Shown here: positions 1,004 through 14,703 of the stretch, piece after piece
How positions within the stretch are numbered: the first letter of the stretch is position 1
How the letters are laid out: the number at the start of each line of letters is the position of its first letter
Virus record (IMG/VR): IMGVR_UViG_2529292910_000005
Strand: one strand, 5' to 3'
From: a virus
Taxonomy: Duplodnaviria; Heunggongvirae; Uroviricota; Caudoviricetes
Length of the DNA stretch: 14,703 nt
Position numbers and translations under genes: made by a program
Notes under the pieces: generated by a model
What the model was told of the DNA's origin: nothing
Database searches by the model: none
What the model saw: only the letters and a program-made list of their open reading frames with translations

Positions 1004-1153
1004 CTACCAGGGAAGAACGGGAAGGAAAGGTGAGCACGAATCTGATTTTCAAGGAGTGTCGCCAGAGTGCCGCGATGAAGCGGGTGTTGGCATTTTATCG
1101 CGGCAATTTTCAATAGACTATGTACATAAAAATATCATTTTTTTAATACATGT

Positions 1154-1345
1154 CTAATTATTGGACGAAATTGGTTTTTGCTTTGGTTTAGTTAGCCTAG
1201 CAATCAAGCCAGAGGCAATAATGATGATCCAAGCAATTTGATGCAATGCTACTCCAATATAAGAACCTTTATAGATAATAAAGGCATAGATCGCTAGAAA
1301 CGAAATAAATATCCATAACGAAAGTTGATAAATTTTGGCGCGCAT
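1154..1345 (-). CDS. Small hydrophobic protein (about 63 aa from the ATG, two predicted transmembrane helices, basic C-terminal tail); function unknown
   Basis: ORF track 1154..1360 (TTG at 1358-1360; first ATG gives MRAKIYQLSLWIFISFLAIYAFIIYKGSYIGVALHQIAWIIIIASGLIARLTKPKQKPISSNN). Two long hydrophobic stretches. Lies in an AT-rich block. No convincing Shine-Dalgarno seen, so coding status is uncertain. Confidence 0.35.
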   Translation of the reverse strand: MRAKIYQLSLWIFISFLAIYAFIIYKGSYIGVALHQIAWIIIIASGLIARLTKPKQKPISSNN

Positions 1346-1566
1346 ATTTAATCCAATCAATCAGAAAGACGAGTAATCATAGAGGTACTATCACCCGGGT
1401 AACTATTGCTATTATGAACGGATAGGATAGAGGCTTCAATAACATATGCATCAAGTATGATGGAATATGTAGGTGAAAATGACTTGTGTCAAATTTGTGG
1501 AAATGAGTACCATGTTTCTCTGAAATTGATGTCGTTAATGGCTAGTGATAGTGAACTTTTTTACTT

Positions 1567-1572
1567 TATAAT
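1567..1572 (+). promoter_or_regulatory. Consensus -10 hexamer TATAAT about 30 nt upstream of the lipoprotein start codon; putative promoter of the lipoprotein operon
   Basis: TATAAT at 1567-1572. The -35 region is poor (AGTGAT/GTGATA around 1544-1550). An AAGG Shine-Dalgarno sits at 1591-1594 before ATG 1602. Confidence 0.3.
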
Positions 1573-1604
1573 TCCTTTGGTTATAACAATAAGGTAAATT
1601 TATG

Positions 1605-1613
1605 AAGAAGATA
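1605..1613. repeat. Left copy of the 9-bp IS1 target-site duplication AAGAAGATA
   Basis: Identical 9-mer directly flanks both ends of IS1 copy 1 (1605-1613 and 2384-2392). Confidence 0.9.
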
Positions 1614-1668
1614 GGTGATGCTGCCAACTTACTGATTTAGTGTATGATGGTGTTTTTGAGGTGCTCCA

Positions 1669-1944
1669 GTGGCTTCTGTTTCTATCAGCTGTCCCTCCTG
1701 TTCAGCTACTGACGGGGTGGTGCGTAACGGCAAAAGCACTGCCGGACATCAGCGCTATCTCTGCTCTCACTGCCGTAAAACATGGCAACTGCAGTTCACT
1801 TACACCGCTTCTCAACCCGGTACGCACCAGAAAATCATTGATATGGCCATGAATGGCGTTGGATGCCGGGCAACCGCCCGCATTATGGGCGTTGGCCTCA
1901 ACACGATTTTCCGCCATTTAAAAAACTCAGGCCGCAGTCGGTAA
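1669..1944 (+). CDS. insA: IS1 InsA (transposition inhibitor / DNA-binding N-terminal part of the InsAB' transposase), 91 aa
   Basis: Translation [40 protein letters not shown]... is the IS1 InsA sequence as I recall it. The A6C frameshift motif (AAAAAAC) lies at 1920-1926 near its 3' end. Confidence 0.9.
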
Positions 1945-2368
1945 CCTCGCGCATACAGCCGGGCAGTGACGTCATCGTCTGCGCGGAAATGGACGAACAG
2001 TGGGGATACGTCGGGGCTAAATCGCGCCAGCGCTGGCTGTTTTACGCGTATGACAGGCTCCGGAAGACGGTTGTTGCGCACGTATTCGGTGAACGCACTA
2101 TGGCGACGCTGGGGCGTCTTATGAGCCTGCTGTCACCCTTTGACGTGGTGATATGGATGACGGATGGCTGGCCGCTGTATGAATCCCGCCTAGAAGGGAA
2201 AGCTGCGACGTAATCAGCAAGCGATATACGCAGCGAATTGAGCGGCATAACCTGAATCTGAGGCAGCACCTGGCACGGCTGGGACGGAAGTCGCTGTCGT
2301 TCTCAAAATCGGTGGAGCTGCATGACAAAGTCATCGGGCATTATCTGAACATAAAACACTATCAATAA
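1863..2368 (+). pseudogene. insB: IS1 insB reading frame, disrupted by two single-nucleotide insertions (extra A near 2192, extra G near 2207)
   Basis: The frame reads ...[16 protein letters not shown] then stop at 2214-2216. IS1 copy 2 in this window reads ...[30 protein letters not shown]...HYQ. Copy 1 has CGCCTAGAAGGG / GCTGCGACG where copy 2 has CGCCTGAAGGG / GCTGCACG. Confidence 0.8.
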
Positions 2369-2383
2369 GTTGGAGTCATTACC

Positions 2384-2392
2384 AAGAAGATA
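2384..2392. repeat. Right copy of the 9-bp IS1 target-site duplication AAGAAGATA
   Basis: See left copy at 1605-1613. Confidence 0.9.
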
Positions 2393-2937
2393 ATATTATT
2401 AGCCATGATTATTGGTTCTTTAACAGGTTGCGCTAGTGTGCCACCATTGAATTTTTCAACACCTAACGTGGGAGTTAGCCAGAAAAAAATAGATGCTGAA
2501 ATTAAGTCATTAACGGTATCACTTGCTCGTCCAGATGAGCAGAAAGGGGATATCACTGCTGGTATGGAGGCTATAACTCCAATTTGGCGTGAATCTTTGC
2601 AGGAAGCACTCGACCGAATGACTATTTTTCGTGATAGTTCACCAAATACGGTTAGCTTAAATGTTAAAGTGTTGGCTCTTGACGTTCCTGCTTTTGGTGT
2701 TTCAATGACAACTAAAGCAATTGCAAGGTATGAAATAATCAACCGTGCGAATGGTGATATTATATATACGCAGGATATTGAGTCTACCGGTACTGTTCCA
2801 GCCAGTTACGCATTCTACGGTATTGTTCGAGCACGCGAATCTGTTAATCGCGCGGTGCAAAACAACATAACGCAGTTCTTGCAAGCATTAGAAAGTGTTG
2901 ATCTTTCTCGTCCAATGTTTCCTGTTAGGGTAGCTAA

Positions 2938-3390
2938 ATGAAGCGATTATTCGTAATTGCTCCACTCTTAGTGTTGGTTGGATGCGCACAAAATATATCG
3001 CCAAATAGTTATTCTGTTGGCTCTGTGGGCATGGTTAATCGAACTATCGCTGGTACAGTTATTAGTGCTAGGGGGGTTGATATCAGTGGGACTTCCGCGT
3101 TAGGCGGGACTGCTGGGGCTGCCGTGGGGGCAACCGCTGGTTCTGCGCTTGGTGGGGGAGTTCGTTCTAATATCGTTGGTGCCGTTGGTGGTGCAGTCAT
3201 TGGTGGTATTGCCGGGGCAGCAATCGAATCTTCAGCAACAAAACAAACAGGCATGGAATATGTTGTCGAAACTGAGAATGGGAATTTAATGACCATTGTT
3301 CAAGGCAAAGATCCGTTATTTACTCAAGGAAGTAAGGTCCTTGTTTTATACGGAAACCCTTCTCGCATAATAACAGACCCGCGTCACTAA
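2938..3390 (+). CDS. Glycine-zipper outer-membrane-type lipoprotein (SlyB/Pcp-like architecture), 150 aa
   Basis: MKRLFVIAPLLVLVGC... has a signal peptide with lipobox L-V-G-C. The central segment is a long Gly/Ala-rich run with repeated GxxxG/AxxxG spacing (GGTAGAAVGATAGSALGGGVRSNIVGAVGGAVIGGIAGAAI). Its start overlaps the upstream stop (ATGA at 2938-2941), implying an operon. Confidence 0.7.
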   Translation: MKRLFVIAPLLVLVGCAQNISPNSYSVGSVGMVNRTIAGTVISARGVDISGTSALGGTAGAAVGATAGSALGGGVRSNIVGAVGGAVIGGIAGAAIESSATKQTGMEYVVETENGNLMTIVQGKDPLFTQGSKVLVLYGNPSRIITDPRH

Positions 3391-3482
3391 CATACCTTTT
3401 GATTTTGTAAAATCAATTCGTAATAATAAAGTCATCGGAGCTTGAACAACTCCGGTGACTTCTGCGCTAAACGGGGACGTTT

Positions 3483-5642: not shown

Positions 5643-6725
5643 TTAGAACTGGTAAACCATACCTACAGCAACGATATCATCGGTAGCAACGCCAGATGCT
5701 TTCGTGAAATCGCTCTTATCAATCAGGTTGATTTTGTAATCAACAAAAGTGGACATATTTTTGTTGAAGTAATAGGTTGCACCTACATCAATATATTCAA
5801 CCAGGTCCTGATCACCCCACGCACCCAAGTCTTTTCCTTTAGATTGCAGGTAAGCAACGGACGGACGCAGACCGAAGTCGAACTGATATTGTGCAACTAC
5901 TTCGAAGTTTTGTGCTTTGTTGGCAATATGGTTATTACCAAAAACAGTCATGTTCTGGGTTTCAGAATAGGTGGTAGCCAGATAGATGTTGTTCGCATCA
6001 TATTTCAGACCAGCTGCCCATACTTCAGCATTTTGACCAGATGCATTCAGGCTGTTGTTACCGTAGATAACCTGATTATTAGTGCGGTCAGATTTAGCAT
6101 AGGTTGCACCTACACCGAATCCTTCATACTCATAAGTAGTGGAGAAACCGAAACCATCACCATTAGCTTCAGTTACGTCAGTGCGGTCATTTTTACCCTG
6201 ATACTGAGCAGCAAAGTTCAGACCATCAACCAGACCAAAGAAGTCATTGTTACGATAAGTTGCAACACCTGTGGTGCGACCAGTCATGAATACATCTGTT
6301 TGGGTCCAGGTATCGCCACCGAATTCTGGCAGAACGTCGGTCCATGCACCAATATCGTATGCTACACCGTAGTTACGGCCATAATCGATGGAGCCGTAGT
6401 CACCGAATTTCAGGCCAGCGAAGGCAAGACGGGTTTTATCTTTGGAGGAACCTTGAGATTCAGCGCGGTTGCCTTTGAATTCATATTCCCACTGACCGAA
6501 ACCAGTCAGTTGATCGTTGATTTGGGTTTCACCTTTGAAGCCAAGACGGGCATAAGTAGTATCACCATCATCTGCATCATTAGAGGAGAAGTAGTGCTTA
6601 GCATTAACTTTCCCGTACAGATCCAGCTTGTTACTGTCTTTATTATAAATTTCAGCTGCCTGAGCAGACATCGCCATCAGTACTGATGCAGCTACAGCAG
6701 AAATTGCCACTGTTAATTTTTTCAT
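5643..6725 (-). CDS. nmpC: OmpC/OmpF-family general porin (NmpC / Lc type), apparently intact, about 360 aa with signal peptide [23 protein letters not shown]
   Basis: ORF 5643..6785; the likely true start is the ATG at 6723-6725 (MKKLTV...) with AAGGG upstream. Porin hallmarks: AEIYNKD mature N-terminus and C-terminal ...VGMVYQF. Unlike K-12 nmpC as I recall it, there is no IS5 interruption here. Confidence 0.9.
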
Positions 6726-7151
6726 CGTGAGCCCTTTTTTTGAACTATTATTAAAAAATGATGTCACTGCGCGATAAATATTCATCTAATCAATGTGATT
6801 ATTTCAAGATGTAAGTTTTGGTTTCTCATTTGATTTGTGAAGTAGATCTCTATTTTTATCTGAACTTTTTCTATCGAATCCTATTCATGGCTCTTGGCTG
6901 AATAAAAATAAATCTATTAGCCAATTTATATTAATGGCTGTTATTTATAAGTGCTCTATAATTTGAAGATTCAATTTAAACCAGCTAAAAATAACGCTGG
7001 AAATTATTTGTTGGTTATTTGTTGAGATTTGCTTATGTATTTGTAGTGGTGTTTTCAATACTCGGTAGCATTCTCGCAAATATCATTTAGTGGTTTACGT
7101 ACGTAAAAAATTGGTTATGCTGTTAAGAGTGGTTACTTCGTCACACAGCTT

Positions 7152-8514: not shown

Positions 8515-8808
8515 TTATTGTGAGCAATACACACGCGCTTCCAGCGGAGTATAAATGCCTAAAGTAATAAAACCGAGCAATCCATTTACGAATGTTTGCT
8601 GGGTTTCTGTTTTAACAACATTTTCTGCGCCGCCACAAATTTTGGCTGCATCGACAGTTTTCTTCTGCCCAATTCCAGAAACGAAGAAATGATGGGTGAT
8701 GGTTTCCTTTGGTGCTACTGCTGCCGGTTTGTTTTGAACAGTAAACGTCTGTTGAGCACATCCTGTAATAAGCAGGGCCAGCGCAGTAGCGAGTAGCATT
8801 TTTTTCAT
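8515..8808 (-). CDS. bor: Bor lipoprotein (serum-resistance, Iss family), 97 aa
   Basis: MKKMLLATALALLITGCAQQTFTVQNKPAAVAPKETITHHFFVSGIGQKKTVDAAKICGG... Lipobox I-T-G-C. Matches lambda Bor as I recall it. Confidence 0.9.
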   Translation of the reverse strand: MKKMLLATALALLITGCAQQTFTVQNKPAAVAPKETITHHFFVSGIGQKKTVDAAKICGGAENVVKTETQQTFVNGLLGFITLGIYTPLEARVYCSQ

Positions 8809-9098: not shown

Positions 9099-9509
9099 TT
9101 AGCGTGGAAAGATTTGTGTAGTGTTCTGAATGCTCTCAGTAAATAGTAATGAATTATCAAAGGTATAGTAATATCTTTTATGTTCATGGATATTTGTAAC
9201 CCATCGGAAAACTCCTGCTTTAGCAAGATTTTCCCTGTATTGCTGAAATGTGATTTCTCTTGATTTCAACCTATCATAGGACGTTTCTATAAGATGCGTG
9301 TTTCTTGAGAATTTAACATTTACAACCTTTTTAAGTCCTTTTATTAACACGGTGTTATCGTTTTCTAACACGATGTGAATATTATCTGTGGCTAGATAGT
9401 AAATATAATGTGAGACGTTGTGACGTTTTAGTTCAGAATAAAACAATTCACAGTTTAAATCTTTTCGCACTTGATCGAATATTTCTTTAAAAATGGCAAC
9501 CTGAGCCAT
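9099..9509 (-). CDS. ybcV: DUF1398-family protein YbcV-like (lambda right-arm accessory ORF), 136 aa from the ATG with a Shine-Dalgarno
   Basis: ORF 9099..9632. The internal ATG at 9507-9509 is preceded by GGAAGG ([31 protein letters not shown]...). Longer alternative starts at 9551 and 9632 lack an obvious Shine-Dalgarno. Confidence 0.75.
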
Positions 9510-10748: not shown

Positions 10749-11294
10749 ATGGAAGTCAACAAAAAGCAGCTGGCTGACATTTTCGGTGCGAGTATCCGTA
10801 CCATTCAGAACTGGCAGGAACAGGGAATGCCCGTTCTGCGAGGCGGTGGCAAGGGTAATGAGGTGCTTTATGACTCTGCCGCCGTCATAAAATGGTATGC
10901 CGAAAGGGATGCTGAAATTGAGAACGAAAAGCTGCGCCGGGAGGTTGAAGAACTGCGGCAGGCCAGCGAGGCAGATCTCCAGCCAGGGACTATTGAGTAC
11001 GAACGCCATCGACTTACGCGTGCGCAGGCCGACGCACAGGAACTGAAGAATGCCAGAGACTCCGCTGAAGTGGTGGAAACCGCATTCTGTACTTTCGTGT
11101 TGTCGCGGATCGCAGGTGAAATTGCCAGTATTCTCGACGGGATCCCCCTGTCGGTGCAGCGGCGTTTTCCGGAACTGGAAAACCGACATGTTGATTTCCT
11201 GAAACGGGATATCATCAAAGCCATGAACAAAGCAGCCGCGCTGGATGAACTGATACCGGGGTTGCTGAGTGAATATATCGAACAGTCAGGTTAA
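10749..11294 (+). CDS. nohD: Terminase small subunit Nu1 (NohD-like), 181 aa
   Basis: MEVNKKQLADIFGASIRTIQNWQEQGMPVLRGGGKGNEVLYDSAAVIKWYAERDAEIEN... includes the N-terminal winged helix-turn-helix region. Matches lambda Nu1 as I recall it. Confidence 0.9.
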   Translation: MEVNKKQLADIFGASIRTIQNWQEQGMPVLRGGGKGNEVLYDSAAVIKWYAERDAEIENEKLRREVEELRQASEADLQPGTIEYERHRLTRAQADAQELKNARDSAEVVETAFCTFVLSRIAGEIASILDGIPLSVQRRFPELENRHVDFLKRDIIKAMNKAAALDELIPGLLSEYIEQSG

Positions 11295-12330
11295 CAGGCT
11301 GCGGCATTTTGTCCGCGCCGGGCTTCGCTCACTGTTCAGGCCGGAGCCACAGACCGCCGTTGAATGGGCGGATGCTAATTACTATCTCCCGAAAGAATCC
11401 GCATACCAGGAAGGGCGCTGGGAAACACTGCCCTTTCAGCGGGCCATCATGAATGCGATGGGCAGCGACTACATCCGCGAGGTGAATGTGGTGAAGTCTG
11501 CCCGTGTTGGTTATTCCAAAATGCTGTTGGGTGTTTATGCCTACTTCATAGAGCATAAGCAGCGCAACACACTTATCTGGTTGCCGACGGATGGTGATGC
11601 CGAGAACTTTATGAAAACCCACGTTGAGCCGACCATCCGCGATATTCCGTTGCTGCTGGCGCTGGCTCCGTGGTATGGCAAAAAGCACCGGGATAACACG
11701 CTCACCATGAAGCGTTTTTCCAATGGTCGTGGCTTCTGGTGCCTGGGCGGTAAAGCGGCAAAAAACTACCGTGAAAAGTCGGTGGATGTGGCGGGTTATG
11801 ATGAACTTGCTGCCTTTGATGAGGATATTGAACAGGAAGGCTCTCCGACGTTCCTTGGCGACAAACGTATTGAAGGCTCGGTCTGGCCAAAGTCCATCCG
11901 TGGCTCCACCCCCAAAGTGAGAGGCACCTGCCAGATTGAGCGTGCAGCCAGTGAATCCCCGCATTTTATGCGTTTTCATGTTGCCTGTCCGCACTGCGGG
12001 GAGGAGCAGTACCTTAAATTTGGCGATAAAGAGACGTCGTTTGGCCTCAAATGGACGCCGGATGATCCCTCCAGCGTGTTTTATCTCTGCGAACATAATG
12101 CCTGCGTCATCCGCCAGCAGGAACTGGACTTCACTGATGCCCGTTATATCTGCGAAAAGACCGGGATCTGGACCCGTGATGGCATTCTCTGGTTTTCGTC
12201 ATCCGGTGAAGAGATTGAGCCGCCGGACAGCGTGACCTTTCACATCTGGACGGCGTACAGCCCGTTCACCACCTGGGTGCAGATTGTCAAAGACTGGATG
12301 AAAACGAAAGGGGATACCTTCTGCCCGTAA
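11269..12330 (+). pseudogene. A: Terminase large subunit gpA, N-terminal about 349 codons only (lambda gpA is 641 aa); truncated at a deletion junction
   Basis: MNISNSQVNRLRHFVRAGLRSLFRPEPQTAVEWADANYYLPKESAYQEGRWETLPF... follows lambda gpA up to ...[12 protein letters not shown], then diverges (FCP, stop at 12328-12330). Start overlaps the Nu1 3' end as in lambda. Confidence 0.85.
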
Positions 12331-12331
12331 G

Positions 12332-13516
12332 GTGAATGGTAAGGCGCTTTCAGCGGATATAACACTGACGCCGAAAGATATTGGTACGCTTAACTCAACA
12401 ACAATGTCATTCAGCGGTGGTGCTGGTTGGTTCAAATTAGCAACGGTAACCATGCCACAGGCGAGTTCTGTTGTTTCAATTACGTTGATTGGTGGCGCGG
12501 GATTTAACGTGGGGTCACCTCAACAGGCAGGTATATCTGAACTTGTTTTGCGTGCAGGTAATGGTAATCCGAAGGGGATTACTGGTGCTTTATGGCAGCG
12601 CACATCGACAGGGTTTACAAATTTTGCCTGGGTCAATACATCTGGTGATACTTACGATATTTACGTTGCAATCGGAAATTATGCGACTGGTGTAAATATT
12701 CAATGGGATTATACCAGTAATGCCAGCGTGACGATTCATACGTCACCAGCATATTCTGCTAATAAGCCGGAAGGGTTAACGGACGGTACAGTTTATTCAC
12801 TCTATACGCCATCAGAGCAGTTTTATCCGCCTGGCGCACCAATCCCGTGGCCATCAGATACCGTTCCGTCTGGCTATGCCCTGATGCAGGGGCAGACTTT
12901 TGACAAATCTGCATACCCGAAACTTGCAGCCGCTTATCCGTCAGCCGTGATCCCTGATATGCGTGGCTGGACGATTAAGGGCAAACCCGCCAGTGGTCGT
13001 GCCGTATTGTCTCAGGAACAGGACGGCATTAAATCGCACACCCACAGCGCCAGCGCATCCAGTACGGATTTGGGGACGAAAAACACATCGTCGTTTGATT
13101 ACGGAACCAAATCCACGAATAACACCGGGGCGCATACCCATAGTATTAGCGGGACTGCAAATAGTGCCGGTGCGCACCAACACAAGAGTTCCGGTGCATT
13201 TGGTGGCACGAACACGAGCATTTTCCCTAATGGTTATACCGCGATTTCAAATCTAAGCGCGGGGATTATGAGCACAACAAGCGGTAGTGGCCAGACTCGT
13301 AATGCAGGGAAGACATCATCAGATGGTGCTCATACCCACTCGCTGTCCGGCACTGCTGCAAGCGCAGGCGCACATGCACATACTGTCGGTATTGGTGCTC
13401 ATACGCACTCCGTTGCGATTGGCTCACACGGACACACCATCACCGTTAACGCTGCTGGTAACGCGGAAAACACCGTCAAAAACATCGCATTTAACTATAT
13501 TGTGAGGCTTGCATAA
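12332..13516 (+). pseudogene. stf: Side tail fibre protein, C-terminal portion only (394 codons open), with repeated His-x-His boxes; 5' end removed by the same deletion
   Basis: Open frame begins one nucleotide after the gpA-remnant stop with no native start context (GTG at 12332). Content is fibre-like (Ser/Thr/Gly/Asn-rich; repeated GAHTHS / GAHQHK / GAHAHT / GSHGHT motifs at about 13030-13450). Followed immediately by tfa. Confidence 0.75.
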
Positions 13517-14097
13517 TGGCATTCAGAATGAGTGAACAACCACGGACCATAAAAATTTATAATCTGCTGGCCGGAACTAATGAATTTATTGGTGAAGGTG
13601 ATGCATATATTCCGCCTCATACAGGTCTGCCAGCAAACAGTACCGATATTGCACCGCCAGATATTCCGGCTGGCTTCGTGGCTGTTTTCAACAGTGATGA
13701 GTCATCGTGGCATCTTGTTGAAGACCATCGGGGTAAAACAGTTTATGACGTGGCATCAGGGGACGCGTTATTTATTTCTGAACTCGGCTCATTACCGGAA
13801 AATGTTACCTGGTTATCCCCGGAAGGGGAGTTTCAGAAGTGGAACGGCACAGCCTGGGTGAAGGATACGGAAGCAGAAAAACTGTTCCGGATCCGGGAGG
13901 TGGAAGAAACAAAAAACAGCCTGATGCAGGTAGCCAGTGAGCATATAGCGCCGCTTCAGGATGCTGTGGATCTGGAAATCGCAACGGAGGAAGAAACCTT
14001 GTTGCTGGAAGCCTGGAAAAAGTATCGGGTATTGCTGAACCGTGTTGATACGTCAACTGCACAGGATATTGAATGGCCAGTAGCACCTATAGGGTAA
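13516..14097 (+). CDS. tfa: Tail fibre assembly protein (Tfa chaperone), 193 aa
   Basis: [59 protein letters not shown]... ATG 13516 overlaps the fibre stop (TAATG). Typical Tfa size and position. Confidence 0.8.
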
Positions 14098-14361
14098 ATT
14101 CGTAATGATTACCTAAATACGTTATTCTTTTGTTCAAAAAGTGATTTTGCTATAGATAGGGAGTATGTTCTTGGATTAAGAATAAAAATCGCCATGAAAG
14201 AGCTTCATGGCGAGTACATAAACGTACAAAATGTGATGAAAGTAGAGTGGCGTAAGCCACTATATTAAGATGTGACAATAGCGAAGAAAAGTAAATAACA
14301 TTTTATGGACGTTTAATTGTTAATTATAAAAACTAGAGTGCCCGATATTGTTTACCTTGCT

Positions 14362-14703
14362 GGTAATGACTCCAACTTATTGATAGTGTTTTATGTTCAG
14401 ATAATGCCCGATGACTTTGTCATGCAGCTCCACCGATTTTGAGAACGACAGCGACTTCCGTCCCAGCCGTGCCAGGTGCTGCCTCAGATTCAGGTTATGC
14501 CGCTCAATTCGCTGCGTATATCGCTTGCTGATTACGTGCAGCTTTCCCTTCAGGCGGGATTCATACAGCGGCCAGCCATCCGTCATCCATATCACCACGT
14601 CAAAGGGTGACAGCAGGCTCATAAGACGCCCCAGCGTCGCCATAGTGCGTTCACCGAATACGTGCGCAACAACCGTCTTCCGGAGCCTGTCATACGCGTA
14701 AAA
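14362..14703 (-). mobile_element. IS1: IS1, second copy, inverted relative to copy 1; only the insB-side 342 bp are inside the window
   Basis: 14362 begins GGTAATGACTCCAACTTATTGATAGTG (IS1 end). Minus-strand ORF 14377..14643 gives the intact InsB C-terminus (...[65 protein letters not shown]). insA and the other end lie beyond the window. Confidence 0.9.

Follow-up and report, generated by a model that had tools for sequence, protein, structure and literature searches.

A two-gene lipoprotein cassette in a lambdoid prophage of Escherichia coli was found to be interrupted by a copy of IS1 that lies just inside the start of its first gene. The DNA analysed, referred to here as the window, is the 14,703-nucleotide stretch of the IMG/VR record IMGVR_UViG_2529292910_000005, which is part of the E. 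coli draft assembly GCA_000249675.2 (contig AIFZ01000005.1) and consists essentially of one decayed prophage. Gene 1 encodes, when reconstructed, a 186-aa lipoprotein (P1) whose modelled structure has the alpha/beta fold of LptE, PqiC and PelC, and gene 2 encodes a paralogue of SlyB (P2). We put the probability that the insertion event and the protein identities are correct at about 0.9. The functional model proposed for the pair, a SlyB-type ring with P1 as partner that serves in lysogenic conversion, is more tentative (0.35–0.4).

The IS1 copy (770 bp, positions 1614–2383, + strand) is 99.7 % identical to IS1B across the full length. Its ends are the canonical terminal inverted repeats, GGTGATGCTGCC from position 1614 and GGAGTCATTACC to position 2383, and its transcriptional orientation is the same as that of both lipoprotein genes. 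A 9-bp duplication, AAGAAGATA, abuts the left end (1605–1613) and the right end (2384–2392) of the IS, and the spacing of the two copies, 779, is the 770 bp of IS1 plus 9. The probability of an exact 9-mer at precisely this position by chance is approximately 4^-9. Ahead of the IS, bases 1602–1604 are ATG and bases 1605–1613 are the codons AAG, AAG and ATA. Joining 1602–1613 to 2393–2941 restored a 186-aa ORF (open reading frame) starting MKKIILLAMIIGSLTGC, and across the reconstructed 1,422 bp there was no difference from the uninterrupted allele of many complete E. coli genomes and of phage PhiR30_1 (100 % identity). An earlier reading of the window made from its letters only (the sequence-only reading) had described the IS, the duplication and the restored lipoprotein, and had called for an allele without IS1 in related genomes. 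All of its coordinates and sequence claims on these points held, and the allele was found with its neighbours conserved.

Of 5,426 complete E. coli genomes, 280 carry the two ORFs, at ≥99 % identity and on the chromosome in all of them; the ORFs are uninterrupted in 279. The cassette was also found in the complete genome of the temperate phage PhiR30_1. In every case ren was on one side of the cassette and a 33-aa ylcH-like ORF together with ybcN/ninB was on the other. The IS1 junction seen in the window was absent from the complete E. coli genomes. The insertion is real and strain-restricted, and it is recent, as the flanks carry no other difference from the intact allele. It has the inverted repeats, 9-bp duplication and AT-rich target common to IS1 disruptions generally, but is unlike the usual case in that insB is frameshifted and in being located so far 5′ that the duplication keeps nearly all of the signal-peptide codons downstream. 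The event itself is ordinary pseudogenisation within a decaying prophage.

Gene 2 (2938–3390, + strand) is intact and was assigned as a 150-aa SlyB-paralogue lipoprotein from the ORF and homology. Its start overlaps the stop of gene 1 (ATGA), an overlap that had been correctly read from the sequence, and a Shine-Dalgarno sequence of its own (AGGG) precedes it by 7 nt. The lipobox is LVGC, with the signal-peptide junction between MKRLFVIAPLLVLVG and C-A-Q, and Cys16 is invariant across 56 homologues. The residue that follows the lipobox cysteine (+2) governs whether a lipoprotein is retained in the inner membrane (Asp) or sorted to the outer membrane. As neither P2 nor P1, which has Cys17 followed by Ala, carries Asp at +2, both are predicted to be outer-membrane proteins.

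When PDB sequences were searched with phmmer, residues 2–149 of P2 aligned with residues 3–155 of E. coli SlyB (7OJF) with an E-value of 1.3e-14. The AlphaFold2 model of P2 (pLDDT 74) has a strand, a two-helix hairpin (residues 55–101) and then a beta domain, and the sole significant fold match in the PDB found using Foldseek was again SlyB (7OJF_A, E 1.5e-8, 29 % identity). P2 and SlyB (PDB 7OJF/7OJG) thus align end to end and have the same length and architecture, namely a lipobox, a two-helix hairpin (a putative glycine zipper in P2) and a beta domain. These matches bear out the SlyB/Pcp-like assignment made in the sequence-only reading, and P2 is best regarded, from sequence and model, as a full-length SlyB paralogue that is additional to the host's own slyB.

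P1 is more divergent. No Pfam family was assigned with P1, with 64 homologues or with divergent members as the query, and sequence searches of Pfam, NCBIfam, PADLOC and PDB with P1 returned nothing beyond the lipobox. The AlphaFold2 model (pLDDT 87.6, pTM 0.81) is a two-helix, four-strand alpha/beta sandwich. In structural comparisons it scored 13.3 against XCC0632/DUF330 (PqiC-like), 10.4 against PelC, 9.8 against LptE, 9.4 against PqiC, 9.0 against CsgG and 7.1 against TraT. On the strength of the model, P1 is an outer-membrane lipoprotein of the LptE/PqiC/PelC alpha/beta fold that belongs to an uncharacterised family. While the fold is common to P1 and the LptE, PqiC (DUF330, XCC0632), PelC and CsgG-type proteins, P1 differs from these families in having no Pfam membership, identity of just 8–15 % and invariant motifs of its own. 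One of these, PPLNFSxPNVG, is right behind the lipid anchor and the other, ARESxNRAVQNN, is in the last helix. Conservation within the P1 family is unusually high (63 % mean column identity across phyla), and an exhaustive profile search recovered 977 representative clusters at E ≤1e-3. Among three distant homologues (P0328, P0350 and P0380), some have no lipobox cysteine and look secreted, and some have long, unrelated, coiled-coil-like C-terminal extensions.

The pairing of the two genes was examined in 75 loci encoding P1, using one genome per species. These loci were found in Xanthomonadales, Burkholderiales, Enterobacterales and many Alphaproteobacteria, as well as in Chthoniobacteraceae, Solibacter, Nitrospinales and Desulfobulbaceae. 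In 68 of the 75, the gene for P1 was followed directly by one for a P2 homologue in the same orientation, and the genes usually abut or overlap. This arrangement sets the P2 family apart from slyB, which has no dedicated partner gene preceding it. It also sets P1 apart from its relatives with the LptE fold, whose partners are LptD, PqiB or PelB, while that of P1 is a SlyB-like protein: no lptD, pqiAB/mce or pelB partner gene is conserved at the P1 loci, and the SlyB-like gene was the sole conserved neighbour. No third conserved gene was detected around the pair in the 75 loci, the other recurrent ORFs being antisense shadows or specific to Stenotrophomonas.

In the distant taxa P1 is 46–84 % identical and the pair is mostly chromosomal and not in a prophage. 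In Xanthomonas it adjoins pgaABCD, in Bordetella it is among toxin–antitoxin genes, and in Klebsiella oxytoca it is found between a gene for a SRAP-domain protein, just downstream of umuDC-like genes, and the cold-shock and CsbD genes. The cassette is not phage-specific, contrary to the sequence-only reading, which had taken it for prophage cargo. That reading had also named an outcome that would count against it, in which both proteins would match well-characterised lipoproteins with the same operon outside prophages. The operon does occur outside prophages, but neither of the two proteins has been well characterised. At the nucleotide level, the copy in the E. coli phage and the one on the K. 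oxytoca chromosome are homologous from the gene 1 ATG to near the gene 2 stop. Since this homology is confined to the ORFs and nothing else is conserved around the pair, the conserved unit consists of two coupled ORFs, with each host supplying its own promoter upstream. Literature searches on SlyB and prophages, on YajG, on PhiR30 and on the WP accessions of both proteins found no study of the cassette. It represents an uncharacterised variation, with two components, on the glycine-zipper outer-membrane lipoproteins.

SlyB and YfgH are coming to be recognised as ring-forming, stress-induced stabilisers of the outer membrane. SlyB is described in a preprint (bioRxiv 10.64898/2025.12.22.696046, citing Janssens et al.) as forming rings of ~11–13 subunits around phospholipid and outer-membrane proteins under outer-membrane stress. 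In the functional model, P2 would likewise assemble into a ring or nanodomain of the SlyB type, with P1 as a dedicated partner that binds lipid or lipopolysaccharide or that organises the ring. The module would be self-contained, and hence workable in any diderm host. A lambdoid phage would have captured both ORFs behind a local promoter as a moron or lysogenic-conversion set, comparable to bor in the same prophage, and in the strain carrying the window the module would have been inactivated, with gene 1 knocked out and gene 2 deprived of its promoter.

Several observations weigh against this account. The confidence of the P2 model is moderate, and the Pfam glycine-zipper scores of P2 are below gathering (21.1 against 24.2 bits for PF05433 and 16.9 against 25 for PF13488), although many of its close homologues have precomputed PF13488 or PF05433 hits. 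The physical link between P1 and P2 is putative and the role in stress protection is extrapolated from SlyB. P2 was not detectable in seven of the 75 P1 loci, and no natural P1–P2 fusions were found among the longer family members, in which the extensions are unrelated. The promoter is a consensus match only and no intrinsic terminator was detected after gene 2. Lastly, read-through from IS1 may give gene 2 product, or a low level of gene 1 product from an internal start at Met9.

The main rival explanation, which we consider unlikely, is superinfection exclusion, named as one option in the sequence-only reading, or surface exclusion. Cor and Llp act on FhuA as receptor-masking exclusion proteins. 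The two lipoproteins could similarly mask or sequester a receptor, or form a ring like that of TraT, and IS1 would then have abolished immunity. The location in a lambdoid moron slot beside conversion genes (bor and a porin gene) is in keeping with such a role. TraT, the surface-exclusion and serum-resistance lipoprotein of IncF plasmids, forms a lipid-plugged ring and derives from a chromosomal gene that mobile elements have co-opted (PMC12658005, PMC11733297). It is made up of an LptE-like core, two transmembrane helices and a beta-hairpin (PMC12658005), elements that are split between P1 and P2, such that the same building blocks are in a single chain in TraT and in two proteins here, both having been captured by a mobile element. 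However, the similarity to TraT is weak and is common to every LptE-fold protein. Neither P1 nor P2 matched any PADLOC defence model, and the PHROG families to which they belong (phrog_12521 for P1 and phrog_13877 for P2) are of unknown function, so the database searches lend the suggestion no support. The occurrence of the pair in distant taxa, mostly on chromosomes outside prophages and with divergent P1, also counts against the pair being specific for an E. coli phage receptor.

The consequences of the insertion for the cassette depend on what was removed from gene 1. The sequence-only reading held that IS1 had split gene 1 from its signal peptide. This is not the case, as the DNA 3′ of IS1 still encodes KKIILLAMIIGSLTGC, which includes 16 of the 17 signal-peptide codons. 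What was removed is the ATG, the Shine-Dalgarno sequence (AAGGT, 1591–1595, + strand, 7 nt ahead of the ATG) and a promoter-like site. The last is a sigma-70-type consensus match, GTGATA-16-TATAAT (1545–1572, + strand), that agrees with the consensus at 10 of 12 positions and is cut off from the genes by the IS; a scan of the region found seven such sites, compared with 4.7 expected from shuffles. Its −10 hexamer (1567–1572) is 29 nt before the ATG, which agrees with the TATAAT reported earlier about 30 nt upstream. The IS is located after codon 4 of gene 1, and the orphaned 5′ end (1602–1613, + strand), consisting of the ATG and codons 2–4 (MKKI), runs into IS1 as MKKIGDAANLLI followed by a stop. 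The right copy of the duplication (2384–2392, + strand) repeats codons 2–4 and begins the remainder of the gene (2384–2941, + strand), which comprises codons 2–186 and the stop with no start codon and encodes the lipoprotein modelled with the LptE/PqiC fold.

The frame that enters gene 1 from IS1 is closed by the insB stop, TAA at 2366–2368. The ATG at 2405 (Met9) is then the earliest start available; gene callers report a 178-aa ORF from it, and no Shine-Dalgarno sequence was found within 5–10 nt of it. Initiation there would give MIIGSLTGC, in which the lipobox cysteine is preceded by eight residues, the N-region is uncharged and the hydrophobic core is five residues long. From what is established for lipoprotein signal peptides, an uncharged peptide of eight residues before the cysteine should not be exported. 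With the frame closed by the insB stop, no ribosome-binding site at Met9 and a poor export signal in the Met9 product, gene 1 in this strain is, on its sequence, almost certainly a null allele. It should be annotated as a disrupted gene rather than as a 178-aa protein. No outward or hybrid promoter-like site that reached the threshold was found at the right end of IS1, where manual inspection revealed poorly spaced hexamers only, and transcription of gene 2 now probably depends on read-through from the co-oriented IS.

The opposite outcome, in which the operon was re-wired rather than knocked out and IS1 read-through or a hybrid promoter expresses both gene 2 and a P1 initiated at Met9, is doubtful. 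IS1 is co-oriented and has a promoter-like site at its left end, gene 2 retains its Shine-Dalgarno sequence, and the 178-aa ORF is intact. The features of the right end of IS1 and of the ATG at 2405 described above count against it, and export of the product would be very unlikely.

Other lesions of gene 1 were also seen. In the complete genome of strain CUVET20-1573 (NZ_CP098858.1) an IS5 is located inside gene 1, at approximately nt 271, and gene 2 is intact; this is a second, independent IS knockout. At six loci from other E. coli isolates, gene 1 has point lesions, each of independent origin, around its translation start (equivalent to window positions 1591–1622). These are ATG to ATA, TTA to TAA at codon 7, and changes of AAGG to AATG, AAGA, AAAG or ACGG, and the AAGG mutations cause gene callers to move the start to Met9. 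The look-up that retrieved these alleles itself selects for lesions, such that enrichment cannot be deduced from it, and the intact protein is found on at least 1,000 contigs. A further possibility, which we regard as speculative and not probable, is that P1 and P2 make up a hetero-oligomeric ring, with a TraT-like architecture distributed over two lipoproteins. The pair would then be a mobile, host-independent module for lysogenic conversion, giving envelope-stress or serum protection or surface exclusion, and the scattered 5′ lesions of gene 1 (IS1, IS5, start loss, early stop and four Shine-Dalgarno changes) would reflect selection against P1 and not neutral decay.

The names given to P1 in public records conflict. 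The Prokaryotic Genome Annotation Pipeline (PGAP) calls WP_000720581.1 a ‘YajG family lipoprotein’, older records have ‘UDP-N-acetylglucosamine acyltransferase’, and others have ‘hypothetical’. If either of the first two were right, P1 would be a YajG-family or LpxA-type housekeeping homologue and the function of the cassette would be known, which we think improbable. The acyltransferase (LpxA) label is wrong, as P1 has a lipobox and no hexapeptide-repeat Pfam match, and is modelled as an alpha/beta lipoprotein and not as a left-handed beta-helix. For YajG, an hhalign comparison of the family profile with the E. coli protein gave a probability of 81.5 % and an E-value of 1.1e-5 over 121 columns that include the signal peptide. 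This is compatible with P1 and YajG belonging to the same superfamily, but not to the same family. The YajG label was not supported at the family level: the NF008637 model scored 11.4 bits against a cutoff of 242 and matched the signal peptide only, and at E ≤1 the 64 family members matched lipid-attachment-site motifs and scattered weak Pfam models, with no match to the YajG model (PF03923). In the literature found, YajG itself is without an established function.

In the IS1 copy, insA (1669–1944) is intact and insB is frameshifted by two 1-nt insertions, at 2192 and 2207, that are 15 nt apart; the copy does not, therefore, have intact InsAB′ transposase frames. Neither insertion was found when ~70,000 IS1 copies from the 5,426 complete E. 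coli genomes were examined; the two are private mutations of a defective copy, or else consensus errors of the draft assembly. That the whole IS is an assembly artefact, a repeat misplaced in the contig, is highly improbable; the draft status of the source and the two insB insertions, which hint at consensus problems in the repeat, can be cited for it, but target-site duplications are not produced by misassembly, the duplication is perfect and exactly at both ends of IS1, and a separate, independent assembly of run SRR094136, which may or may not be from the same strain, stops inside the right end of IS1 with the identical right junction. A second IS1 in the opposite orientation (14360–14703) is cut short by the window end, just past the tail-fibre assembly gene. 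The related NCTC9104 prophage instead has an IS1 in ybcV, at the equivalent of window positions 9161–9169.

The prophage starts at a truncated integrase gene directly beside ybhC, the gene that flanks the lambda attachment site. In the nin/Q/lysis region it shares 97 % identity with the K-12 prophage DLP12. It is not DLP12 itself, which is located at argU. Homology to DLP12 (renD) ends at window position 1089 and is back at 3397, seven bases past the gene 2 stop, and the same slot, from ren to ylcH/ybcN, contains emrE-ylcJ-ybcK-ybcL-ybcM in DLP12. The proposal that the cassette is cargo swapped relative to K-12 DLP12 is right for the slot, but the prophage, DLP12-like in its late region, is a different one. 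The cargo slot (1090–3396) begins with an AT-rich non-coding leader (1090–1601, + strand; 34–35 % GC, compared with ~50 % in the flanks), to which nothing corresponds in either K-12 DLP12 or the chromosomal copy of K. oxytoca. No convincing PhoP box was found upstream of the cassette, where it was looked for by eye only. At the right boundary (3397–3480, + strand), where DLP12 homology resumes upstream of ylcH, there is a strong hairpin (approximately 3429–3460; GTCATCGGAG...CTCCGGTGAC) with no T-run in sequence common to DLP12. The folding energy of −25.3 kcal/mol is for the whole stretch 3391–3480 and not for the hairpin alone.

The slot is a deviating insert between conserved phage genes that is swapped in relatives, as expected of a moron. 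The lambdoid morons bor, lom and cor and the emrE-ybcM cargo of DLP12 represent the same kind of locus, an AT-rich insert in the early-right operon with its own promoter-like site. The cassette differs from these in gene content and in being a two-gene module that is widely found outside phages.

Much of the remaining prophage has been lost. The left arm (1–1113) is almost gone, with the truncated integrase gene, a RecT/DUF1382 fusion ORF (602–967, − strand) and a remnant of ren, to ~1089, retained. Compared with the nearly identical prophage in NCTC9104, the window has extra deletions at 656 and 743. In the region 11269–13516, the terminase large-subunit gene is truncated and fused to a tail-fibre fragment, the head and tail morphogenesis region having been deleted as in NCTC9104. 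A match to the Rfam family IS009 (RF02111) scoring 218 bits, against a gathering threshold of 117, was found at 13859–14057 (+ strand) in the region of the tail-fibre assembly gene. The same remnant keeps an intact gene for a porin of the NmpC/OmpD type (5643–6785, − strand) and bor (8515–8808, − strand), which encodes a serum-resistance lipoprotein. Several envelope-modifying cargo genes have outlasted the decay of this prophage.

The cassette is of interest mainly because a SlyB paralogue is accompanied by an obligate partner of the LptE fold, in dozens of species from several phyla and in a temperate phage. It can be tested directly, as the IS1 and IS5 alleles are natural knockouts for which intact isogenic counterparts with 100 % identity exist. 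If P1 and P2 do form a complex, the pair would constitute a two-component glycine-zipper nanodomain system, and a new kind of envelope function carried by prophages.

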